Shown here: piece after piece, positions 1,786 to 41,273 of the stretch
How positions within the stretch are numbered: position 1 is the stretch's first letter
Layout of the letters: each line of letters opens with the position of its first letter
Source of the DNA: an uncultured Clostridia bacterium
Lineage (GTDB): Bacteria > Bacillota > Clostridia > TANB77 > CAG-508
Assembly: GCA_944387525.1 (NCBI GenBank)
Contig: CALXFF010000002.1
Span: 8,954-72,953, forward strand
Length of the DNA stretch: 64,000 nucleotides
Direction: 5' to 3'
Position numbers and translations under genes: made by a program
The notes under the pieces: generated by a model
What the model was told of the DNA's origin: nothing
Database searches by the model: none
What the model saw: only the letters and a program-made list of their open reading frames with translations

Positions 1786-3207
1786 ATGACTGAATCACGG
1801 CGTTTCAAAAATCAAATAGTTATCAAAGGGTACAATGAAGGTGTAACCGGTTCTGCAATTAGATGTACTGTTGAAAGAAGCTTTTATGATGATTTTCAAT
1901 TTTTAGTAGATTTCGGGTTTTATCAAGGAACTGAATATGAAAAGCTTAGTTACAATAATATCAAGCCTTTAAAGTTAAATGCTGTTTTTTTGACACATAA
2001 TCATTTAGATCATGCAGGAGCATTACCTTTATTAGTTAAAAGAGGTTATAGTAACAAAATTTATACTTCAATTCCTACATCAGAATTATTAGGTATTGCA
2101 TATGAAGATACTCTTTCCATTTTTTCAGAGAGAGTATCGGAGAAAAATAAAAAGCAAAAAATGCTTTATAATTCAGATAATGTTAAAAAAACATTAAGCT
2201 TGGTGAAACCTACACGGTATCAAAAAACAATAAATTTGGGTGAAAACCTAACTGCAATGTTATTTGAAAATCAACATCTTGTTGGTGCTTCAATGGTTTT
2301 AATTAGGAGTAAAGTCTATGATACTCAAGAAGTGAATATTCTTTTCACAGGTGATTACAATAATAAAAATTCTTTTTTAGAAAATGTTGACCTGCCTGAA
2401 TGGGTATATAAATTAAAGAATTTAACTATTGTAACAGAAGCAACATATGGTAATACTGATTCTTGTGAGGTAAAATATGTTTGGGCAGATAATATGGTTG
2501 AGGCATGCATGAATGGGAAATCTATTTTGTTATTAGGATTTGCACAAGGCAGAATCCAAGAACTACTTTATCAGATTAAATGCCTGCAAGAACAAGGTTT
2601 AATTCCTGCTGACTATTGCATATTCTCGGATGGAAAATCCAGTATTAAATATAGTTTTAGCTATGCACAAAATAAAAAACTTGGAATAAAACCTGAAATG
2701 AGAAACTTTTTTCCAAGTAATTTAAATTTTGTTGATAATAAAATTCGTCAAACATTGTTGCATAGTCATGGTAAAAGAATAATAGTTTCCACATCCGGAA
2801 TGGGTAATTTTGGACCAGCAAGAATATATATTCCTGAAATGTTACCTAATGAGAATTGCGTAATTCATTTTAGTGGCTATACCGCAAAAGGTACCCTAGG
2901 AAAGAAATTACAAGAACAATCATATGGTGAACCTATTTGTATTAGTGGTATCACAATTCCTAGACGAGCTGAAGTTCTTAACACTACAGAATTTTCAGCA
3001 CATGCAAAAGCAGATGAATTAATATCATTTATTAAAAAGTTTTCTGATGTTCGTTCAGTATTAGTAACACATGGCGAACCAGAAGTAAAAGAAAAATTTG
3101 CGAAACGTGTTGCTAAAGAAACTTCTGTTAATAAAGTAGGCGTTTTAGGAAATGGCTATTCATACAGGATAGGACCATATGGAATTATAAAATCGATTCA
3201 AGATTAA
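1786..3207 (+). CDS. MBL-fold metallo-hydrolase, RNA-metabolising beta-CASP family (paralog 2, tandem duplicate)
   Basis: THNHLDHAGALP motif and SAHAKADEL motif C. Roughly 35-40% identical to the upstream paralog. AAGGAG RBS. Confidence 0.8.
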   Translation: MTESRRFKNQIVIKGYNEGVTGSAIRCTVERSFYDDFQFLVDFGFYQGTEYEKLSYNNIKPLKLNAVFLTHNHLDHAGALPLLVKRGYSNKIYTSIPTSELLGIAYEDTLSIFSERVSEKNKKQKMLYNSDNVKKTLSLVKPTRYQKTINLGENLTAMLFENQHLVGASMVLIRSKVYDTQEVNILFTGDYNNKNSFLENVDLPEWVYKLKNLTIVTEATYGNTDSCEVKYVWADNMVEACMNGKSILLLGFAQGRIQELLYQIKCLQEQGLIPADYCIFSDGKSSIKYSFSYAQNKKLGIKPEMRNFFPSNLNFVDNKIRQTLLHSHGKRIIVSTSGMGNFGPARIYIPEMLPNENCVIHFSGYTAKGTLGKKLQEQSYGEPICISGITIPRRAEVLNTTEFSAHAKADELISFIKKFSDVRSVLVTHGEPEVKEKFAKRVAKETSVNKVGVLGNGYSYRIGPYGIIKSIQD

Positions 3208-4449: not shown

Positions 4450-5545
4450 CTAAAGCTTCAAATATGCTTCCATAAAATCTGTAATATTCCCATCCATAAC
4501 AGATTCCACATTTCCTACTTCATAATTTGTTCTATGATCTTTTACCATAGTATATGGGCAAAATACATATGACCTAATTTGACTTCCCCATGCAATTTCT
4601 TTTTGTTCTCCTTTTAAATCTTCAATTTTTTCTTTTTGTTCTTGCTCTTTCAAATCTAATAATTTTGATTTTAACATTTTCATTGCAGTTTCTCTATTTT
4701 GAATTTGTGAACGCTCTGATTGACAAGCCACAACAGTATTAGTTGGTATATGTGTTATTCTTACAGCTGATGATGTCTTATTTATATGTTGCCCTCCTGC
4801 TCCAGATGCTCTATATGTATCTATTCTCAAATCATCTGGATTTATTTCGATTTCTATATCATCAGTAATTTCAGGCAAAACTTCAACTGATGCAAAAGAT
4901 GTGTGTCTCCTTCCCCCACTGTCAAATGGTGAAATTCTAACTAGTCTATGCACTCCTTTTTCACATTTCATATATCCATATGCATTTTCACCTATTACCT
5001 CGAATGTGACACTTTTTAGTCCTGCTTCTTCACCTTCTAAATAGTCTAATTCTTTTACTTCATAGTCATTTTTTGTTGCCCATCTTGTATACATTCTATA
5101 TAGCATTTCTGCCCAATCTTGTGATTCTGTTCCTCCTGCTCCTGGATGGATTGTCACTATTGCATTATTATTATCATATTTTCCTGAAAATAAAGTTTCT
5201 ATTTCAAATTTTTCAACTTCTTTTTTTACTTTATTTGTTCCTTTTATAATTTCTTTTGCTACTTCTTCATCTGGTTCTATATTTACTAATTCTGTTAATT
5301 CTTTTAAATTCTTTATTTCGTTTTCTATCTCTTGATATTTATTGCTTTTTCTTTTTATACTTTTTATTTTTCCTAAAACTTTTTGTGAATTTTTTTGGTC
5401 ATCCCAAAATTTTGCATCTAGTGTTTGTTTTTCTAATTCTTTTAATTCTTCTTGTAATTTGGCAATGTCAAAGTGACTCACCTAATTCCTTTAGTTTGTT
5501 TTCTAGTTCTTCTAGTATCTTAGCGTTTTCTTCTAATTCAAACAT
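4450..5545 (-). CDS. prfB: Peptide chain release factor 2 with programmed +1 ribosomal frameshift
   Basis: GGQ motif (SGAGGQHINKTSS). The frame-0 ORF starts at ATG ~5545 (RBS AGGAGAG) and reads MFELEENAKILEELENKLKELGESL then CTT-TGA-C at ~5468-5470. The +1 frame continues DIAKLQEEL.... The shift site is preceded by the SD-like AGGAATTAGGTGAG. The ORF track only shows the post-shift frame (4450..5481). Confidence 0.9.
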
Positions 5546-5607
5546 TTTATCACTCTCCTAACTTGCTTTATTTTAACATAGATTTATATTGATTTCAATT
5601 TTAATTG

Positions 5608-6144
5608 TTACAAATTATCACCCATGTTATATAATTTGCTTAAATTCCGTTTATTTATAATAATTTCCTGTTTAATTTCTTTTATAAATTCAGGAAGATT
5701 TGTGTATGTAGCAACAATTCCTCTATTTGACAAAGCAATAACATTTTTAGCTTTTTCAAGTATCTCACGTTGTATTATTTTAGAAACCTTTATTTCTTGT
5801 CCTTTTCGTAGATATTCCTCTTGAACATATAGCTCAGTTGTAGGGAATATGTTTTGAATTAAGAAAACTCCTTTAATTCCTGCAATATTATTAAAGAATA
5901 CAAAATTGTTAGGCTCTTTATTTATTTTTTGCTTTTTATTATTATATATCTTAAAATATTTGTCGTACTGTTTTGACATTGGAACAAACCACAATAAATC
6001 CTTATTTTTATTGTCTTTAAAACAAAAATATGTAGGTCGTTTCGTTCCTTTTTCTATTTTATTCTCCATTAAATGATATTTTTGTCCATATTTCTCTAAA
6101 AATTCATCCTTTATAAAATATAATCTTCCTTCTTTTATTTTCAT
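5608..6144 (-). CDS. Candidate type III toxin, ToxN/AbiQ-like endoribonuclease (178 aa)
   Basis: Size and motif layout resemble ToxN/AbiQ: N-terminal LYFIKDEFLEKY, RPTYFCF, and LLWFVPMSKQ in the register of YFAPLSSPK. AGGAG RBS with a 6-nt spacer. It lies immediately downstream of the tandem repeat array and a weak terminator. It is an insert between secA and prfB. Confidence 0.5.
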   Translation of the reverse strand: MKIKEGRLYFIKDEFLEKYGQKYHLMENKIEKGTKRPTYFCFKDNKNKDLLWFVPMSKQYDKYFKIYNNKKQKINKEPNNFVFFNNIAGIKGVFLIQNIFPTTELYVQEEYLRKGQEIKVSKIIQREILEKAKNVIALSNRGIVATYTNLPEFIKEIKQEIIINKRNLSKLYNMGDNL

Positions 6145-6154
6145 TGCATACTCC

Positions 6155-6183
6155 TAAAAAAGAGGAGACTTCAAGCCTCCCCT
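6155..6183 (-). terminator. Weak terminator-like hairpin (GGAGGCT-TGAAGT-CTCC + T6) between the repeat array and the toxin ORF
   Basis: Minus-strand reading is GGGGAGGCTTGAAGTCTCCTCTTTTTT. This is analogous to the ToxI-ToxN intergenic attenuating terminator. Confidence 0.45.
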
Positions 6184-6189
6184 ACTATT

Positions 6190-6298
6190 ATATTTTTTCA
6201 CCGGTGCATTTATCTCATCGCCAACCGGGTGGCAGCTTATATCGTTTCACCAGTATATTTATCTCATCGCCGACTGGGCGGCAGCTTATATTTTTACA
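6190..6298 (-). ncRNA. Candidate type III antitoxin RNA: 2 (to ~2.2) tandem 49-nt direct repeats
   Basis: R1 (6196-6244) is tttcaccggtgcatttatctcatcgccaaccgggtggcagcttatatcg. R2 (6245-6293) is tttcaccagtatatttatctcatcgccgactgggcggcagcttatattt. About 88% identical. The internal stem GCCA..TGGC in R1 becomes GCCG..CGGC in R2, a compensatory change. Confidence 0.5.
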
Positions 6299-6326
6299 GA
6301 TTTTACTCTGTTCATTTAGTATATTC

Positions 6327-6355
6327 ATTGTAACATATTTTTATGTGGTTTTCAA
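6327..6355 (-). promoter_or_regulatory. Near-consensus sigma-A promoter driving the repeat array (-35 TTGAAA, 17-nt spacer, -10 TACAAT)
   Basis: Minus strand reads aatacTTGAAAaccacataaaaatatgtTACAATgaata. It sits ~14 nt after the secA stop. Confidence 0.6.
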
Positions 6356-6368
6356 GTATTTTTTTAAA

Positions 6369-9125
6369 TTATGCGTTCTTTCCATGGCAATTCTTATACT
6401 TTTTACCCGAACCACATGGGCAAGGATCATTTCTACCAATCTTAGGACCTTCATTACGAATAGTTCTATCAACATCAGTACCAATCTTAGCCCCACCATC
6501 GACACTATGGATAGCCTCTAATGCTGCACCTGTAATCTTAACAGTCTCTTGTCTCTTTGTCTCGCCTTGTTGTCTAATATGCATCAAAATCTTAGTTACA
6601 TCATATTTGATATCATTAATCATCTCATCAAACATATCAAAACCTTCAAGTCTGTATTGAACAACAGGATCTTTTTGACCATAAGCACGTAAACCAATAC
6701 CATTTTTTAATTCATCCATGCTGTCAATATGATTCATCCATTTTTCATCAACAACTTTAAGCATAACAACTCTTTCAAGCTCTCTCATTTCGTCTGAACC
6801 AATATCTTGTTCCTTTTGGTCATATATTTCCAAAGCTCTTTTTCTTAATTCATCTGAAATTACCTGTGGATTAGTTTTGTTTTCTTTTACGAAGTCTGAC
6901 ATATCAATTCCAAATACATTTAAAATTTCTGTATTTAAAGACTCTACATTTACTTCTGATGTTTCACCTTCTATAAACATATTTGATATGTTTTCTGCAA
7001 CAAAATCAATCATTGCAATTATATTATCATGGATATTTTCTCCATCAAGAACTTCTCTTCTTTGTTTATAAATAATTTCTCTTTGAGCATTCATTACATC
7101 ATCATATTTTAATACATTTTTACGAATACTGAAGTTTCTACCTTCTACTTTTTTCTGTGCATTTTCTACTGCGTTTGAGATAATTCTTGAATCTATTGGC
7201 ATATTTTCGTCTGCACCTAGTGTATTATATACTTTAGTTATCGCATCTCCACCAAAGATTTTCATTAAGTCATCATCTAATCCAATATAGAATTTAGATT
7301 CTCCTATATCTCCTTGACGTCCAGCACGTCCACGTAACTGGTTATCAATTCTTCTAGATTCATGTCTTTCTGTTCCTATGATCTTTAGTCCACCAGCTTC
7401 AATTACTTTTTCTTTTTCTTCTTTTATTTGCTCATCAAATTTATTTACTAACTCTTTAAATTGCTCTCTTGCTTTTAAAATGTCTTGGTCATCTGTTTCA
7501 TAATATGTGTCTGCTGCTTCAATTAATTCAGCTGGAACTTTATTTTTTCTCATAGCTTCTTTTGCTAAATATTCACTATTTCCACCAAGCATAATGTCAG
7601 TACCACGTCCTGCCATGTTTGTTGCAATTGTTACTGCACCATATTTTCCTGCTTGTGCAATTATTTCAGCTTCTTTTTCATGATATTTAGCATTTAATAC
7701 TTCATGCTTAATTCCTTCTTGTTTTAATAATCCACTTAATTTTTCAGATTTTTCGATTGATACTGTACCAACCAAAACTGGTTGACCTTTTTTATGACTT
7801 TCTTTTATGCTTTCTACAATTGCCCTATATTTTGCATTTTCATTTTTGTATATAACATCATTTTCATCTTTACGAATCATTGGTTTATTTGTTGGTATTT
7901 CAACAACATCTAAATTGTAAATCTCTTCGAATTCTGCAGCTTCTGTCATAGCAGTACCTGTCATACCTGATAATTTATCATACATTCTAAAGAAGTTTTG
8001 GAATGTGATTGTTGCTAAAGTTTTTGACTCATCAGCTATCTTCACATGTTCTTTTGCTTCGATTGCTTGATGTAATCCATTATTATATCTTCTTCCATAC
8101 ATAATACGTCCTGTAAATTCATCAACAATTAAAACTTCGCCATCTTTTACGATATAATCAATATCTTTTTTCATAACACCATGCGCACGTAATGCTTGGT
8201 TTACATGGTGAACTAATGTAGAGTTTTCTAAGTCATTGAAGTTTTCTAATCCAAATGCTTCTTCTGCTTTTTTAATACCTTTTTGTGTTAATGATGCAGA
8301 TTTTGCTTTTAAGTCTACAATGTAATCATATTTTTCATTATCTTCTTGTTGATCAAAATCTTTTACATCTTCTTCAACAATAACTTTAGGTGTTAATCTA
8401 CGTACAAAGTTATCTGCTTTTTTGTATAAATCTGATGACTCATTTGCTCTACCTGAAATTATAAGTGGAGTACGAGCTTCATCAATTAAAATACTATCAA
8501 TCTCATCGACGATTGCATAATGTAATCCCCTTTGAACTAATTGATTTTTATATATAACCATATTATCTCTTAGATAATCAAATCCAAATTCATTATTTGT
8601 ACCATATGTTACATCTGCATTATATGCTTCTTGTTTTGCCTTAGGCTCCATTCCTGCAATTACTAAGCCAACTGATAGCCCTAAGAATTTATATAATTTT
8701 CCCATCCATTCACTATCTCTTTTTGCTAAGTAATCATTTACTGTAATTACATGAACTCCTTTTCCTTCTAGTGCATTTAAATATACTGGAAGTGTTGCAA
8801 CTAAAGTTTTTCCCTCACCAGTTTTCATTTCTGCAATTCTTCCTTGGTGTAAAATGATACCGCCTATTAATTGTACATCAAAATGTCTCATTCCTAAAAC
8901 TCTTTTTGATGCTTCTCTAACAACTGCAAATGCTTCTGGTAATATGTCATCTAATGTTTTTCCATTTTTTAATTGCTCTTTGAAGTATTCTGTTTTTCCT
9001 CTTAATTCCTTATCACTTAATTTTGACATTTCGTCTTCTAAGCCATTAATTTTTTGTACTATTGGCATTACTCTTTTAACTTCTTTTTGACTGTAAGTTT
9101 TGAAAATTTTTCTTATTATGCTCAT
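6369..9125 (-). CDS. secA: Preprotein translocase ATPase SecA
   Basis: 918 aa. DEAD-like motor motifs and a C-terminal zinc finger [14 protein letters not shown]. Confidence 0.95.
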
Positions 9126-11156: not shown

Positions 11157-11768
11157 CTATCCTTCCTTTAAAAAATCTTTTAAACAATTTAATTCTTTTT
11201 CAAATTCATACCTTGTAAATGTAGTTTGACTTTTTTCTGTTTCTCCCATTACATGAATAATGTCTCTATCACATATTTTTAATGCATTTCTATACAACGG
11301 ATTTTGTATAGCTGATATATATAGTTCGTCTACCATATCATCATATTCTTGACTATATCTATCTATTTCTTTTCCTTGCCAGTAAACTATTCCTGTCTGT
11401 TTCCAGTCATAATCAGTCGCAGCTTTAATATGATTTGAATCTAAACCACTATATAAAAAAACAAAATCTTGCAATTCTTTATCTTTGAATTTAATTCCTT
11501 GAAAGAAATTCTCTATACAATGAAGGTGTTTTCCTTTAAAATCAAATTCGTATGGAAATAAATTTGAAAAAATTTTCGCATAAGGACCTTTTAATTTATA
11601 TCCAACATTAATCCATTTCTCACAATCTCCTAATTCTTTGCCTTCCTCATCTATCAACGCAATTCCATCACAATATTGAATTCCATCAATAATTTCAATT
11701 TCTTTTTGATTGAACTCATAATTTTCTTTGAATTTTTTAAATTTTTTTAATTCCTCTTCAATGCTCAT
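11157..11768 (-). CDS. NADAR (YbiA/DUF1768) domain protein
   Basis: Motif FSNLFPYEFDFKGKHLHCIENFFQGIKF matches the NADAR signature LSNFYP..F..DG..Y.S.E..FQ..KF. Confidence 0.55.
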   Translation of the reverse strand: MSIEEELKKFKKFKENYEFNQKEIEIIDGIQYCDGIALIDEEGKELGDCEKWINVGYKLKGPYAKIFSNLFPYEFDFKGKHLHCIENFFQGIKFKDKELQDFVFLYSGLDSNHIKAATDYDWKQTGIVYWQGKEIDRYSQEYDDMVDELYISAIQNPLYRNALKICDRDIIHVMGETEKSQTTFTRYEFEKELNCLKDFLKEG

Positions 11769-11811: not shown

Positions 11812-12339
11812 TTACCACTTGGAATCGTCTTCTTCCCAGCATTTGTTGATAATCTGGGTTAAAGCCATTGTTGTTGCCTGAAAAATCAAAGCTTGTCTAG
11901 AAAGTACATTATTTGTTAATTTTCCAACTCCACCTTTTCCATCAAATACATGGTCTGATACTTCAGCAAAACTTGTTTGCATCATAAGTTCTACATATTT
12001 GTCTGGAATAGGTACACCTGCACTTGTCCCTATACCTTTTTTCCCCGTTTTTAACTCTTCTAATAAAACTAATTGTAAATTAAAATAAGTTCCAAATTGT
12101 TTTATTATTCCTCCTTCGCAAGAGACAATAAAATCATATTTTGAAATATCTGTAGACTTTTTTAAATTTTCAATCCGATTTTTAGCTCCGTTAAAAACAT
12201 CATCATAAAAGGGTTGTCTAGAAACATTTGATTCGCATTTTGATTCAATAGCAACAACATTAGGATAATAGTTTGTAAATGCCTGTCTAACTGCTTCGGT
12301 TTTTATCCGATTTTCACTTGTAACAATGACATTTGTCAT
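11812..12339 (-). CDS. Inosine/xanthosine triphosphatase (YjjX / DUF84, non-canonical purine NTP phosphatase)
   Basis: Motifs NVIVTSENRIKTEAVRQAF, SNVSRQPF and GAKNR match the YjjX family. 175 aa. Confidence 0.65.
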   Translation of the reverse strand: MTNVIVTSENRIKTEAVRQAFTNYYPNVVAIESKCESNVSRQPFYDDVFNGAKNRIENLKKSTDISKYDFIVSCEGGIIKQFGTYFNLQLVLLEELKTGKKGIGTSAGVPIPDKYVELMMQTSFAEVSDHVFDGKGGVGKLTNNVLSRQALIFQATTMALTQIINKCWEEDDSKW

Positions 12340-36450: not shown

Positions 36451-38157
36451 TTACATTTTGTTTGGCATTTCCATTCCTAATAAGTAACCACCTATTTTTA
36501 ATACTTTTCCAACTGCATTTGTTAAATAGATACGGGCATCTTGTAATTCTTTTTCTTCCCCTATAATTTTATTTTCATTATAGAAATTACTATATGCTTT
36601 TGCTAAATCTATTAAATATCTTGCAAGAATTGATGGCTCTTCTTTGTTTGTTACTTGAGTTAATATATCTTCAAAATTGTATATTGTTTTTAAAACATTA
36701 ATAGAATATTCATCTTGTAATTTTTCGATATTTATATCTTCAAATTTTGGCATTTCTTCTACTTTTGATAATACACTTTGTGTACGTACATATGTATATT
36801 GTATATATGGTCCTGTTTCTCCTTGGAAGTTTAATGCTGTATTCCAATCAAATATTTGGTCTTTTATGTTTGCTGTTGATAGTGTGTTATATACAATTGC
36901 ACCAATTCCAACTTTTTTTGCAACTTCTTCTTTTTCTTTTAAGTCTGGATTTTTTTCTGCTATTATTTCTTCTGCTTTTTCTATTGTTCCATTTATTAAG
37001 TCTTCTATTTTTACAACATTTCCAAGTCTTGTTGACATTTTACCAGTTGGCAAGGCTACCATACCATATGATACATGTTCTAATCCTTTTACATATTTTT
37101 CATCTACTAGATATCTTGCCACTGCAAATATTTGTTTAAAGTGTAGATTTTGTTCATATGCTACTACATACAAGCATTTATCAAAATCATATGTTTTTGC
37201 TCTATACATTATTGCTGCTAAATCTCTTGTTGCATATATTGATGAACCATTTGCTTTTTGTATTAAACATGGTGTTTTTATTCCTACATCTGTTAAATCT
37301 ACAATTTTTGCTCCTTCTGAATCAGTTAATACTCCTTTTTCTTCAAGTTTTTGTATTACTTCATCAGTTTTATCTGCATAAAATGCTTCTCCATTGTATG
37401 AGTCAAATTTGACGTTTAATACATCATAAATCTTGTTAAATTCAACCATACTTACATCTTTAAATTTATTCCACAAGTCTGTACAGTATTTATCTCCTGC
37501 TTCTAATAGTCTAAAATTTTCTCTGCATCTTTCAAGTACGTTTTCATCTTCTTTACAAAGTTCATTAATTCTTACATACATATCCATTAATTTATTAATT
37601 GGATCAACAGTTAAATCATATTCTTGTCCCCACATTTTATATGCTTCTATCATTTTTCCGAATTGTGTTCCATAATCTCCTAAATGATTTACTCCTGTTG
37701 TATTATATCCTAAATATTTATATATTCTGTATAAAGAATTTCCTATTAAAGTTGTTCTTAAATGCCCAATATGAAATGGCTTTGCAATATTAGGTGAAGA
37801 ATAGTCTATTACTATATTTTTTCCTTTTCCTATTTCTGACTTTCCATATTCTTCTTTGTTTGAAATTTCTTCTAATACTTCTTTTGCAAGTAATTTTTTA
37901 TTAATATAGAAATTTATATATCCACCTAAAACTTCAATTCTTTCAATTACATTATTATCAATTTCAATTTTTTCTTTTATTTCTTCTGCAATTGCTTGTG
38001 GGGCTTTTTTTAAAGTTTTTGCAAGCCTAAAACATGGAAATGCATAATCTCCATTGTTTTGGTCTTTTGGAATTTCAATATATCCTTCTATTTCATTTTG
38101 TTCGATTTCTGTTGCTTTTGAAATTTCTTTAGCAATTTCTTTTTTAAATTGTATCAT
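36451..38157 (-). CDS. argS: Arginine--tRNA ligase
   Basis: HIGH motif (PFHIGHLRT). 568 aa. Confidence 0.9.
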   Translation of the reverse strand: MIQFKKEIAKEISKATEIEQNEIEGYIEIPKDQNNGDYAFPCFRLAKTLKKAPQAIAEEIKEKIEIDNNVIERIEVLGGYINFYINKKLLAKEVLEEISNKEEYGKSEIGKGKNIVIDYSSPNIAKPFHIGHLRTTLIGNSLYRIYKYLGYNTTGVNHLGDYGTQFGKMIEAYKMWGQEYDLTVDPINKLMDMYVRINELCKEDENVLERCRENFRLLEAGDKYCTDLWNKFKDVSMVEFNKIYDVLNVKFDSYNGEAFYADKTDEVIQKLEEKGVLTDSEGAKIVDLTDVGIKTPCLIQKANGSSIYATRDLAAIMYRAKTYDFDKCLYVVAYEQNLHFKQIFAVARYLVDEKYVKGLEHVSYGMVALPTGKMSTRLGNVVKIEDLINGTIEKAEEIIAEKNPDLKEKEEVAKKVGIGAIVYNTLSTANIKDQIFDWNTALNFQGETGPYIQYTYVRTQSVLSKVEEMPKFEDINIEKLQDEYSINVLKTIYNFEDILTQVTNKEEPSILARYLIDLAKAYSNFYNENKIIGEEKELQDARIYLTNAVGKVLKIGGYLLGMEMPNKM

Positions 38158-39875: not shown

Positions 39876-41273
39876 TTAACATTTACTTATACTCATTCCA
39901 TCCTTTGTGTCTTTTACTTCATAACCTTTTTCTTTTATCAAATCCCTTAATCTATCAGATTCAGCCCAATTTTTTTCTTGTCTTGCAATTTTTCTTTGTT
40001 CCATTAAATCTAATATCTCTTGAGGAATTTCAACTTCTTCTTGTTCAGGTGCTTTATCAATTTTTAGTCCCAAAACTGTATCAAATTGTAATAGTAAATC
40101 TGCAACTTCTTGAGATTTCTTATTATATCTTACTGCTTCCCATACATAACTCATGGCAAGTGGCATATTCATGTCATCATTTATTGCCTCATGGAAATTA
40201 TGCTCTATTTCTTCTAATTTTTTTCTATCTTTTTTGTCTAATTTGTCTTTTCCTTCTTTATGTATTTTATATCCATTTCTAAGTCTTTCTAATGATTTAG
40301 ATGTTGCTTCCATACCTTCCCATGTAAAGTTTAATTTTATTCTATAACTACATGAATAGCATAAAAGTTTATATACTATTGGGTCATATCCTCTGTCTTT
40401 TATATCTTTTATTAAATAAACATTTCCTAAGCTTTTTGACATTTTTCCGCCATTAATTAGTAAATATTCTCCATGCAACCAATAATTTGCAGGTATTTTT
40501 CCACATGCTCCTTTACTCTGTGCAATTTCATTTTCGTGGTGTGTTGGTATTAAATCAATTCCGCCTGTATGAATATCAAATTGTTCCCCTAAATATTTTT
40601 GTCCCATTGCACTACATTCAATATGCCAACCTGGATAACTTGGCCCCCATGGGCTATCCCATTTCATCAAATGATTTTCTGGTGCTTTTATCCATAAAGC
40701 AAAATCATATGGATTTCTCTTTTCTGGGTCTACATTTACTCTTGCACCTGCTTTTTGCTCTTCTATATCTAAATTTGACAATATTGGATATTTGTCTAAT
40801 TTTGATATATCAAAATATATTGCTGTTGATGTTTCATATGCATATCCATTTTCCATTAATTTTTTTACATATTTTAACATCTCTGGTATATGGTCTGTTG
40901 CTTTACAAATTATTTCAGGAGTTTCTATATTTAAGTCTTTTAAGTCTTGGAAGAATAGTTTTGTGTAATGTTCAGCGATTTCTAAAGGTGTTTTGTGTTC
41001 TTCTTTAGCAGATTTTATCATTTTGTCTTCACCTTCGTCACCGTCTGAAACTAGGTGTCCTACATCTGTTATGTTCATTACATGTTTGATTTTGTATCCA
41101 TTGTATTTTAAAACTCTTCTTAGTACATCTTGAAATATGTTTGTTCTCATATTTCCTATTGTTGCATCTTTGTATACCGTTGGTCCACAAGAATAAATTC
41201 TTACCTCATTTTTGTCAATTGGTATAAATTTGTCTTTTTGTCTAGTTAGAGTATTATAAAAATATATATCCAA
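39876..41273 (-). CDS. cysS: Cysteine--tRNA ligase
   Basis: CGPTVY...HIGN and KMSKSLGN class I motifs. Confidence 0.9.
   Translation of the reverse strand: MDIYFYNTLTRQKDKFIPIDKNEVRIYSCGPTVYKDATIGNMRTNIFQDVLRRVLKYNGYKIKHVMNITDVGHLVSDGDEGEDKMIKSAKEEHKTPLEIAEHYTKLFFQDLKDLNIETPEIICKATDHIPEMLKYVKKLMENGYAYETSTAIYFDISKLDKYPILSNLDIEEQKAGARVNVDPEKRNPYDFALWIKAPENHLMKWDSPWGPSYPGWHIECSAMGQKYLGEQFDIHTGGIDLIPTHHENEIAQSKGACGKIPANYWLHGEYLLINGGKMSKSLGNVYLIKDIKDRGYDPIVYKLLCYSCSYRIKLNFTWEGMEATSKSLERLRNGYKIHKEGKDKLDKKDRKKLEEIEHNFHEAINDDMNMPLAMSYVWEAVRYNKKSQEVADLLLQFDTVLGLKIDKAPEQEEVEIPQEILDLMEQRKIARQEKNWAESDRLRDLIKEKGYEVKDTKDGMSISKC

Follow-up and report, generated by a model that had tools for sequence, protein, structure and literature searches.

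The gap between secA and prfB in this genome carries a 0.76-kb insert in which a promoter, two tandem repeats, a hairpin with a T-run, a ribosome-binding site and an ORF follow one another, all on the minus strand. We are confident that this insert is a self-contained type III toxin-antitoxin cassette of the CptIN family, about 0.75 kb long, with its own promoter at one end and the stop codon of the toxin gene at the other, and with a predicted mechanism like that of the E. rectale system. The evidence from this analysis is the anatomy of the cassette, the family and predicted fold of its toxin, an architecture conserved among relatives, and covariation of the stems in both repeats. The first-pass annotation had read the locus as a toxin-antitoxin system of type III. 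That reading is borne out by the match to the NCBIfam CptIN model, by the likeness to the crystallised E. rectale CptN (PDB 4RMO), by the recurrent architecture and by the pseudoknot covariation, and the four sequence features on which it was built are all present on the minus strand, at or within a few bases of where they had been placed. The operational features used for type III loci in PMC3401426 are likewise found here (promoter, terminator, and an array of 49 nt x 2.1). Positions below are those of the window, that is, the whole stretch of 64,000 nucleotides that was analysed.

6369..9125, minus strand: secA, upstream flank outside the cassette (918-aa ORF; stop codon 6371-6369)
6327..6355, minus strand: promoter TTGAAA-17-TACAAT with TG extended -10 (consensus scan, 10/12 positions)
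6296..6311, minus strand: 5' leader hairpin ACAGA-GUAAAA-UCUGU (MFE and centroid folds)
6188..6295, minus strand: cptI antitoxin array, two full 49-nt repeats and a partial third copy (Tandem Repeats Finder)
6242..6290, minus strand: predicted processed CptI unit 1, 49 nt (pseudoknot search, covariation, junction A-U, E. rectale topology)
6283-6279 with 6272-6268, minus strand: unit 1 stem S1 (pseudoknot search)
6278, minus strand: unit 1 loop L1, a C (pseudoknot search)
6277-6273 with 6254-6250, minus strand: unit 1 stem S2 (pseudoknot search)
6267-6255, minus strand: unit 1 loop L2, with AUAAAU at 6262-6257 (pseudoknot search)
UAUAAGC (5') and 6249-6242 (3'), minus strand: unit 1 tails (unit ends inferred)
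6193..6241, minus strand: predicted processed CptI unit 2, 49 nt (pseudoknot search, covariation)
6234-6230 with 6223-6219, minus strand: unit 2 stem S1 (pseudoknot search)
6229, minus strand: unit 2 loop L1, a C (pseudoknot search)
6228-6224 with 6205-6201, minus strand: unit 2 stem S2 (pseudoknot search)
6218-6206, minus strand: unit 2 loop L2, with AUAAAU at 6213-6208 (pseudoknot search)
6156..6183, minus strand: intrinsic-terminator-like hairpin (10 bp, 5 G-C pairs, 3-nt loop) and T5, between array and toxin gene (hairpin 6183..6161)
6151..6155, minus strand: ribosome-binding site AGGAG, 6 nt upstream of the ATG (sequence reading)
5608..6144, minus strand: cptN toxin gene, 178 aa, CptIN-family endoribonuclease by homology (NCBIfam, phmmer, AlphaFold2, Foldseek)
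4450..5545, minus strand: prfB, downstream flank outside the cassette (sequence reading, ORF table, tblastn to L001 and L078)

Reading of the sequence shows prfB to be programmed for a +1 frameshift, at CUU UGA C (5473-5467). The host is one of the uncultured gut Clostridia and its genome is of low GC (28.6% in the window). The insert, at 27.6% GC against 28.6% for the window, was rejected as a compositional island. There is no second cptN copy within the window.

Expression signals

The near-consensus promoter claimed just after the secA stop codon holds up: it begins 13 nt past that codon, and its sequence is kept in the cassette copies at loci L002 and L003. A leader hairpin follows the predicted transcript start and precedes the first repeat. 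In L003 it reads GCAGA...UCUGC, an A-U to G-C change made on both sides, and other subgroups have a different hairpin (GAUAC...GUAUC) at the same position. It may act as a 5' stabiliser.

The GC hairpin and T-run described between the repeats and the toxin gene were found at 6183-6156. This is the sole terminator-like site in 5400-6600, with 0.4 expected by chance, and the hairpin also appears in the MFE fold. A comparable hairpin with a T-run occurs in 54/77 homologous loci when a strict pattern is applied, and the array-to-toxin spacer of homologous loci has a median folding energy of -17.9 kcal/mol. The AGGAG site and the 178-aa ORF behind it are also as first described, the ATG being at 6144 and the stop codon ending at 5608. 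In the stretch from the secA stop to the toxin ATG the ORF table lists no minus-strand ORF of at least 50 aa that fits entirely inside; its one minus-strand entry there, 6341-6505 (54 aa, GTG), extends into secA.

The CptN toxin

The ORF matches the NCBIfam CptIN equivalog NF047359 at E 1e-36, with 126.1 bits against a cut-off of 90, over residues 7-152 of the protein and positions 2-145 of the 150 in the model. CptIN was the sole NCBIfam family matched, in a library that may lack a TenpN model. With phmmer, E. rectale CptN (4RMO_A) was matched at E 6e-18. The AlphaFold2 model of the cptN product (pLDDT 90.5, pTM 0.86) has the same chain as its top Foldseek match (TMt 0.82, rmsd 2.7 A, E 8e-10, 26% identity in the structural alignment), and the next best are MazF/Kid/CcdB structures, the MazF chains scoring TMt 0.58-0.68. 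CptN has itself been reported as closest to the MazF/Kid/CcdB folds, and the model has the CptN hallmark of helices around a core of twisted antiparallel beta-sheet, in a fold that is nearer to Kid/MazF than the ToxN fold is.

Is this then a ToxN/AbiQ-like protein, as the first-pass annotation proposed? At the family level it is not: the Pfam ToxN family PF13958 gave no match even at E <= 10, whereas the CptIN model was passed and the best solved relative is E. rectale CptN. The suggested structural comparison with ToxN/AbiQ did turn up a distant fold match (AbiQ, Foldseek rank 32, TM ~0.6), but the closest fold is that of CptN. Among the homologues the PF13958 label is carried only by P0117 and P0118, both very distant. 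Weak Pfam matches to COBRA and PscD were discarded as noise.

All 18 of the 18 invariant family columns are kept, including R36-P37-x-Y39, S57, K62-Y63 and Q97-N98. Two E. rectale residues, Ser51 and Tyr104, have clear and conserved counterparts in Ser57 and Tyr111. Others that form the active site or specify the base are unmatched: Ser52 and Arg53 correspond to Lys58 and Gln59, and Asp81/Ser85 fall on Ala/Gly in a loop where the alignment is uncertain. Relative to most homologues the protein has a C-terminal helical extension of ~15 aa. Among the 120 homologues listed, which do not include E. rectale CptN itself, the one nearest to that toxin is ~40% identical to it.

The cptI array

Tandem Repeats Finder gave a period of 49, with 2.1 copies at 6188-6291 and, as a second run, 2.2 copies at 6188-6295 (83-85% matches); the partial third copy recreates the junction motif. 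The two tandem 49-nt repeats of the first-pass annotation are therefore real, at a lower identity (41/49, 84%) than the ~88% it gave. The compensatory change between GCCG..CGGC and GCCA..TGGC is real too, in the reverse order: on the transcribed strand it is the upstream repeat that carries GCCG. A further compensatory pair, absent from that annotation, reads CCAGU/ACUGG in repeat 1 and CCGGU/ACCGG in repeat 2. Four of the 8 differences between the repeats thus form two compensatory pairs, one in S1 and one in S2 of the predicted units.

Each unit folds into an H-type pseudoknot made up of a 5-bp S1, a 1-nt L1, a 5-bp S2 and an A-rich loop containing AUAAAU. The nested MFE fold (z = -1.4) instead has an alternative helix joining the two repeats; the program cannot model pseudoknots and, because CptI is one, this fold is uninformative here. 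The repeats matched no Rfam family.

Conservation across homologous loci

The comparison set comprised 80 loci, from at least 544 relatives found among species-representative genomes, nearly all of them uncultured gut Clostridia. Two in-register pseudoknot units lie upstream of the toxin gene in 77/79 usable homologous loci, where the order of promoter, two units, hairpin, ribosome-binding site and ORF is the same. The arrangement is accordingly not due to chance; among shuffled sequences, 2.9% had two pseudoknot units anywhere. It had been said at the outset that ORF homologues without an upstream array would count against a type III reading, and this is not the pattern observed.

Covariation, which had also been proposed as a check on the homologous arrays, was computed on alignments A2 and A3. 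In an alignment of fixed segments (-190 to -35) from the 80 loci, made with no selection on pairing, 92.5% of cells over both stems of both repeats are paired, versus 29-43% for slid partners; 17 of the 20 stem pairs change on both sides, and a covariation score of 0.498 compares with 0.111 at most. In the unit alignment MAFFT shifted the GACAC/GUGUC subgroup out of register by two columns, and the paired fraction is therefore lower there; we left this uncorrected, which is conservative. An A-U dinucleotide is invariant at each of the three junctions in all 80 loci, and the central adenines of AUAAAU in repeat 2 (A6211, A6210) are invariant or nearly so.

Unit spacings in the relatives range from 45 to 49 nt and their Tandem Repeats Finder periods from 46 to 49. 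Of the 79 loci with sufficient sequence upstream, 31 have two repeats so diverged from each other that the program missed the array; these arrays were recovered by sequence reading and a pseudoknot pattern search. The set extends covariation support for the CptI pseudoknot beyond the single crystallised example, it supplies an alignment from which an RNA family model could be built, and its conserved junction dinucleotide is a testable candidate cleavage site.

The sequence of the S2 helix differs between repeat 1 and repeat 2 in 74/77 loci (a count slightly inflated by ~7 mis-picked units), each helix being perfectly paired, and the repeat-1 and repeat-2 types are each kept across many species. 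Are the two repeats of this CptIN clade maintained as different pseudoknots rather than as copies? We offer this tentatively and think it, on balance, unlikely. If true, it would mean selection against identical neighbouring units, possibly because dissimilar units avoid mis-pairing in the precursor or recombinational loss of a copy, or because one RNA of each of the two units joins two CptN in a heterotypic ring. The type III papers that we compared work from consensus repeats, and dissimilar neighbouring units are not described in them.

Mobility

The cassette is 95.4% identical to the copy in L002, whereas the adjoining secA genes are only 81% identical (89% amino-acid identity between the secA product and the ORF upstream of the L002 cassette). 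It is 85% identical to the copy in L003, where the neighbours are unrelated. Judged from the excess of cassette over secA identity, the cassette moves horizontally as a promoter-to-stop unit, and the secA-prfB gap is a recurrent site. A further insert, of 3.9 kb, lies in the L002 gap; its AAA ATPase is a weak match to DolB, a Dodola protein (E 1e-11).

Proposed mechanism and biological role

Homology with CptIN of E. rectale is the ground for what is predicted here on RNA cleavage and its exact site, on how leaky the terminator is, and on stoichiometry, toxicity and biological role. Transcription from the promoter would give an RNA that opens with the leader hairpin and the two 49-nt CptI repeats. 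The hairpin and T-run would stop most transcripts, leaving antitoxin RNA in excess, and those that read through would carry cptN as well. CptN, as an endoribonuclease of the MazF/Kid fold, would cleave the precursor at the three repeat junctions into two 49-nt units, most likely at the invariant A-U so as to leave a 3'-terminal A. Each unit is expected to fold into its H-type pseudoknot with the 5-bp S2 stacked on the 5-bp S1 across the 1-nt L1, and with the 13-nt A-rich L2 and its AUAAAU lying in the S1 minor groove. Through its single-stranded tails a unit would bind a pair of CptN monomers and obstruct their active sites, probably in a closed ring of 2 protein : 2 RNA, which a two-unit array would fit. 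Were transcription of the cassette to stop, or the RNA to decay faster than the protein, free CptN would cut cellular (or phage) RNA and growth would be arrested.

Abortive infection could be the role for which the cassette was selected, CptN being freed when a phage shuts off host transcription and the RNA decays. We regard this as a real possibility that falls somewhat short of being probable. ToxIN, AbiQ and TenpIN are abortive-infection systems (PMC3401426, PMC5086642), the cassette spreads horizontally, the DolB-like ATPase insert in the L002 gap is what a defence hotspot might hold, the toxin matches PHROG family phrog_33519 (function unassigned) at E 6e-11, and IMG/VR viral contigs carry 15 distant relatives. 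Against this, no PADLOC model matches the toxin, no match was found in 50,697 phage genomes, the CptIN systems of E. rectale and R. torques gave no protection against 6 coliphages, and that of E. rectale gave none against >200 coliphages either; stabilisation of a plasmid by E. rectale CptIN fits selfish addiction instead. A defence role is thus unproven for the CptIN family, since E. rectale CptIN gave no phage resistance in E. coli. In another reading the cassette would be a remnant, decaying or domesticated, whose toxin is inactive or whose RNA does not function. Databases contain many truncated cptN genes (PMC3401426), fragments occur among the homologues listed, and pairwise alignment shows other residues at several active-site positions of E. 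rectale CptN. That said, the ORF is full-length with all family-invariant residues, the promoter, ribosome-binding site and terminator are intact, compensatory changes have kept the stems perfect in both repeats, and the cassette is better conserved (95%) than the flanking essential gene (81%), all of which makes a remnant very improbable.

There are two further alternatives. Since the repeats sit in the 5' untranslated region with a terminator right behind them, a layout found in many attenuators, they might be a cis-acting leader (an attenuator or riboswitch-like element) for the ORF rather than an antitoxin acting in trans. We find this the hardest of the alternatives to credit: no Rfam family matches, the terminator stem is free of overlap and of competition with either pseudoknot, two independent pseudoknot copies that covary and are bounded by three conserved junction motifs are the signature of processed type III antitoxins, and a single E. 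rectale CptI repeat acts in trans. The first-pass annotation took the two 49-nt repeats to be unlike CptI and suggested a new type III subfamily. A family apart from ToxIN, CptIN and TenpIN could indeed be argued from the repeat length, the 26% structural-alignment identity to the crystallised CptN, the long L2 and the C-terminal extension of the toxin. However, published CptI repeats are 40-48 nt in 1.9-3.4 copies (PMC3401426, Table 2), so that the copy number here (2.1-2.2) is inside the range and the length of 49 nt is one over it; relatives form a 45-49 nt continuum; and the RNA shares the CptI pseudoknot topology, 1-nt L1 and AUAAAU motif. On the range and the shared RNA features the argument fails. 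The toxin exceeds the CptIN equivalog cut-off by 36 bits and matches 4RMO in both sequence and fold, and because validated CptN toxins are mutually only 35-44% identical, its divergence is not far outside the family spread. A separate family is correspondingly very improbable. The cassette is a well-formed yet ordinary example of CptIN, a family already described, and leaves the understanding of type III systems unchanged. What is gained is that a core-chromosome gap of 0.76 kb without annotation is assigned to a complete CptIN cassette, including an RNA gene, cptI, that escapes protein-only pipelines and Rfam.

Comparison with known systems

The type II toxins MazF, Kid and CcdB would have in common with the cassette toxin, as modelled, a core fold; they differ in having protein antitoxins, no RNA-binding helices and no upstream repeats.

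Type III families are defined by toxin sequence (PMC5086642). With ToxIN of Pectobacterium atrosepticum and Bacillus thuringiensis and AbiQ/antiQ of Lactococcus the cassette would share, by analogy, the type III logic: the toxin processes the repeat RNA of its own locus, the antitoxin units are pseudoknots, a terminator attenuates, and cleavage falls after A in an A-rich sequence. The toxin folds are distantly related, but the cassette toxin has no Pfam ToxN match. ToxIN/AbiQ repeats are 34-36 nt in 2.8-5.5 copies, their pseudoknots are triplex-stabilised, their complexes are 3:3 triangles, and abortive infection has been demonstrated for them. The characters of that class (repeats of ~31-46 nt, a 3-4 nt loop 1a-2a, triplex type) are not those of the cassette unit, which has 49 nt, an S1a-S2a loop of 1 nt and a 1b-2b loop of 13 nt. 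TenpIN of Photorhabdus luminescens resembles the cassette in its type III architecture and in its long repeats (39-57 nt) in ~2 copies; its toxin is probably of a different family, and it protects E. coli against phage whereas the CptIN systems tested did not (PMC3401426).

The CptIN family was described by Blower et al. 2012 (PMC3401426), and the E. rectale complex (PDB 4RMO) by Rao et al. 2015 (PMC4627078). Characters of CptIN are a toxin that cleaves the precursor of its own repeats to units ending in a 2',3'-cyclic phosphate, and neutralisation by none but the cognate RNA, within a 2:2 heterotetramer. We derived the 45-nt E. rectale CptI sequence from a primer in Table 2 of PMC4627078; it agrees with the G13, U23, G24, A29, U30, A33, G35, G44 and A45 of the text and disagrees at 'C6', which falls on a U. 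The cassette differs from this system in repeat length (49 versus 45 nt), in L2 length (13 versus 9 nt), in the L1 base (C versus G), in the junction motif (AAAU/CGAU versus UUGA-AAG) and, if cut at the invariant A-U, in its tails (7 + 8 versus 6 + 5 nt). Since L2 is longer, the tertiary A-minor geometry may differ; of L2's extended A-minor twist and the kink U, only the AUAAAU motif is conserved. The toxin, at 178 aa with an extra C-terminal helix, is longer than CptN (155-162 aa), and the alignment shows Ser52, Arg53, Asp81 and Ser85 not to be conserved. The two systems nevertheless agree in the order of promoter, about two tandem repeats, terminator and toxin; in toxin family (NF047359) and fold (TM 0.82); in an H-type pseudoknot with a 5-bp S1, a 1-nt L1, an S2 that abuts S1 and an A-rich L2 with AUAAAU; and in their chromosomal location in gut Firmicutes.

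The insert between secA and prfB

secA and prfB are separated in the window by a minus-strand cassette in which the elements claimed in the first-pass annotation (promoter, tandem repeats, hairpin with T-run, AGGAG and a 178-aa ORF) could all be found.

Features of the cassette and its flanks
9125-6369, minus: secA ORF (TAA stop at 6371-6369)
6355-6327, minus: promoter TTGAAA-17-TACAAT with TG extended -10, 10/12 consensus positions matched
6311-6296, minus: leader hairpin ACAGA-GUAAAA-UCUGU, downstream of the -10 box and ahead of the first repeat (fold prediction)
6295/6291-6188, minus: tandem repeats, period 49 nt, 2.1-2.2 copies (Tandem Repeats Finder, TRF)
6183-6156, minus: G+C-rich terminator-like hairpin of 10 bp, then T5 (terminator scan)
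6155-6151, minus: RBS AGGAG, 6 nt ahead of the ATG
6144 (ATG) to 5608 (end of stop codon), minus: toxin ORF, 178 codons
5545-4450, minus: prfB, start 62 nt past the toxin ORF

The hairpin at 6183-6156 is the sole terminator-like site within 5400-6600 (shuffles give 0.4). There are two full 49-nt copies of the repeat, as had been claimed, but they are identical at 41/49 positions (84%) and not at ~88%. The prfB gene has a programmed +1 frameshift site (CUU UGA C, 5473-5467, minus); its short upstream frame begins at ATG 5545, and the mechanical ORF list has the downstream frame only (4450-5481, 'GTG' start).

Scanning one genome per species gave at least 544 loci encoding relatives of the toxin, of which the best 80 (L001-L080) were analysed. 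All 80 are metagenome-derived and are labelled Clostridia or Clostridium, except for single bins labelled Bacillota and Saccharibacteria. In one of these loci (L003) an A-U pair of the window's leader hairpin is replaced by G-C, a compensatory change; more distant loci (L061-L080) carry unrelated hairpins (GAUAC...GUAUC) in its place, and some subgroups lack one.

The toxin is a CptN

The first-pass annotation took the ORF product to be ToxN/AbiQ-like. Pfam gives no ToxN domain match to it even at E <= 10, and PADLOC gives no match. It does match, over nearly the complete model, the NCBIfam equivalog NF047359, 'type III toxin-antitoxin system CptIN family toxin' (E 1e-36; 126 bits, where the curated cut-off is 90), and its only sequence match among solved structures is 4RMO chain A, CptN of Eubacterium rectale (E 6e-18). 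An AlphaFold2 model built with 41 homologues (mean pLDDT 90.5) also has 4RMO_A as its top Foldseek match in the PDB (E 8e-10, target-normalised TM 0.82, rmsd 2.7 A); MazF-type toxins come next, with AbiQ no higher than rank 32. This is the order reported for CptN by Rao et al., who found CptN to be closer to Kid than ToxN is (PMC4627078). The toxin thus belongs to the CptIN family.

The window toxin keeps all 18 columns that are invariant in an alignment of 41 relatives, including R36-P37-x-Y39, W52-F53, P55, S57, K62-Y63, Q97-N98 and F100-P101. S57 aligns to the E. rectale active-site Ser51 and Y111 to Tyr104. Equivalence of the two active sites is nevertheless only partly supported by the pairwise alignment, because Ser52, Arg53, Asp81 and Ser85 of the E. 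rectale protein have no conserved counterpart. The C-terminus is ~15 aa longer than in most relatives and is predicted from the model to continue the last helix.

The repeats encode covarying pseudoknots

Each repeat can form a pseudoknot of two stems, S1 and S2. To avoid circularity, the stretch from -190 to -35 relative to each ATG was aligned for all 80 sequences and the window pairs were projected on. In this alignment standard pairs occupy 92.5% of 1420 cells, a share that drops to 29-43% if the 3' partners are displaced by 1-3 columns, and 17 of the 20 pairs have changed on both sides. The covariation score is 0.498; displaced partners give at most 0.111 and shuffles at most 0.224 (0/500 as high as the score observed). 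Each of the four helices (S1 and S2 in both repeats) has support of its own, and an alignment of single units agrees. The eight differences between the window repeats include two compensatory pairs. That in S1 (G6279-C6272 in repeat 1, the upstream unit; A6230-U6223 in repeat 2) had been seen in the first pass; that in S2 (A6275-U6252 against G6226-C6203), which defines the pseudoknot, had been overlooked.

Absence of a repeat array from homologues of the ORF had been named as evidence against a type III locus. Searching for the pattern S1a(4) - 1-3 nt - S2a(5) - 0-1 nt - S1b - 8-20 nt - S2b found two in-register units in 77/79 usable loci; two units anywhere occurred in 2.9% of mononucleotide shuffles. 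Three exceptions to the pattern are looser, yet recognisable, variants. The arrays lie about 45-180 nt upstream of the toxin ATG (L007-L023, L026-L080). TRF reports a 46-49-nt, ~2-copy array in 48 of the 79 loci with enough upstream sequence; reading the others revealed two units likewise, but more diverged from one another. TRF misses many arrays because the repeat pair of one locus usually has different stem sequences.

This divergence is widespread. The S2 helix differs between repeats 1 and 2 in 74/77 loci (the true count is a little lower, as the script picked ~7 units wrongly); in 29 loci, for instance, CCUAU/AUAGG is followed by CCUGC/GCAGG. Each repeat's stems keep their own compensatory pairing, and conservation across many species holds for the repeat-1 and the repeat-2 type alike. 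The published type III repeat analyses compared here deal with consensus repeats only. If selected, the differences might insulate the folding of neighbouring units, keep recombination from deleting a copy, or serve a heterotypic 2:2 ring.

Predicted processing sites

Each of the array's three junctions has an A-U dinucleotide that is invariant in the alignment of 80 loci (A6291-U6290, A6242-U6241 and A6193-U6192, spaced exactly 49 nt); the partial third copy serves to recreate the last. All characterised type III toxins cleave after A in A-rich sequence (PMC5086642, PMC4627078), and the last base of E. rectale CptI, A45, carries a cyclic phosphate (PMC4627078). Given these precedents and the invariance of the dinucleotide, we predict a cut between A and U, giving units 6290-6242 and 6241-6193. 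Modelling on the E. rectale junction would instead place the cut at UGA^AA, after A6247 and A6198.

Genomic context and mobility

The window belongs to the core chromosome (secA, prfB, guaA, Mur ligase, [FeFe] hydrogenase, nrdD, argS, cysS, class A PBP, infB, nusA, clpX), and the insert has no distinct composition (27.6% GC; window 28.6%). Several other features of the window are of note. It has no tRNA genes and no Rfam families at gathering threshold; T-box leaders often precede argS and cysS in Firmicutes, and both genes (36451-38157 and 39876-41273) are present here, yet without an Rfam match. Adjacent plus-strand paralogs at 266-1711 (481 aa) and 1786-3207 (473 aa) have the metallo-beta-lactamase/beta-CASP/RMMBL domain set typical of RNase J-type ribonucleases. 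In otherwise housekeeping surroundings, a 203-aa protein (11157-11768, minus) matching Pfam 'Bacteriophage protein GP30.3' (E 7e-26) adjoins an NTPase_I-T (DUF84) protein (11812-12339, minus).

Locus L001 is arranged as in the window (97.7% identity). In L002 the cassette is 95.4% identical (window 6363-5624, L002 3782-4521) whereas the adjoining secA, an essential gene, reaches only 81% DNA identity (window 7400-6363, L002 2678-3715), a contrast suggesting that the cassette was recently acquired by horizontal transfer or that gene conversion took place. In L003 the cassette is 85% identical (window 6370-5655) and the neighboring genes are unrelated. On these comparisons, the mobile unit starts at the -35 box and ends near the toxin stop.

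The gap between secA and prfB appears to receive insertions repeatedly. In L002 it holds, besides the cassette, an extra 3.9 kb (4535-8393) between cptN and the prfB start, with ORFs of 181, 387 and 376 aa; the last encodes an AAA ATPase weakly matching the Dodola protein DolB (E 1e-11), and the other two have no matches. This suggests an insertion or defence hotspot. A distant cptIN in L078 (4001-4471; toxin identity 47%) lies ~1 kb upstream of prfB (5506-6609), with no secA detected within 4 kb upstream of it; this may be coincidence, or it may be a second sign that cptIN cassettes are drawn to the region ahead of prfB. Seven plasmids (H1-H7) and 15 IMG/VR viral contigs (L081-L095) carry distant CptN relatives (27-44% identity), and none was found in the phage genome collection. 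In the 2012 survey cptIN was chromosomal in 33/33 loci (PMC3401426).

Comparison with known CptIN systems

A period of 49 nt in two copies had been thought to set this locus apart from CptI. That premise is wrong: set against the published ranges (40-48 nt, mean 44.8; 1.9-3.4 copies; toxins of 45-213 aa; Blower et al., PMC3401426), the window locus (49 nt, 2.1-2.2 copies, 178 aa) exceeds them by 1 nt in repeat length only, and its relatives have a unit spacing of 45-49 nt (TRF periods 46-49). It is a further member of a family already known, and a model naming its toxin already exists in the NCBI annotation pipeline.

By homology, the cassette would share the molecular mechanism of CptIN. E. 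rectale CptIN stabilizes plasmids (PMC4627078); the E. rectale and R. torques systems gave no protection against six coliphages, nor did that of E. rectale against >200 (PMC3401426, PMC4627078). The L002 neighborhood hints at a defence hotspot. Between selfish maintenance and abortive infection, we consider the former somewhat more likely.

The 45-nt E. rectale unit was derived from reverse primer CptI-WT (PMC4627078 Table 2): AAGUUUACCACUGACCGAUAUGUGGUAUAUAAAUGGUCGGGUUGA. It agrees with the numbered bases that were checked (G13, U23, G24, A29, U30, A33, G35, G44, A45), with one mismatch, the 'C6' of the text being U. Its derived layout is a 5' tail of 6 nt, S1 ACCAC/GUGGU, loop L1 = G13, S2 around CCGA(U)/(G)UCGG, loop L2 = AUAUAAAUG, and a 3' tail of 5 nt ending in A45. 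The window units share this layout, with some parts longer: if cut at the invariant A-U they would have a 5' tail of 7 nt and a 3' tail of 8 nt, around an S1 of 5 bp (outermost pair U-G, U-A in some relatives), an L1 of 1 nt (C), an S2 of 5 bp abutting S1, and an L2 of 13 nt. In both the window and E. rectale, AUAAAU stands in L2 immediately ahead of S2b. The antitoxicity of E. rectale CptI is lost with A29U or deletion of U30 (PMC4627078), and the central adenines of the repeat-2 AUAAAU vary hardly or not at all among the 80 loci.
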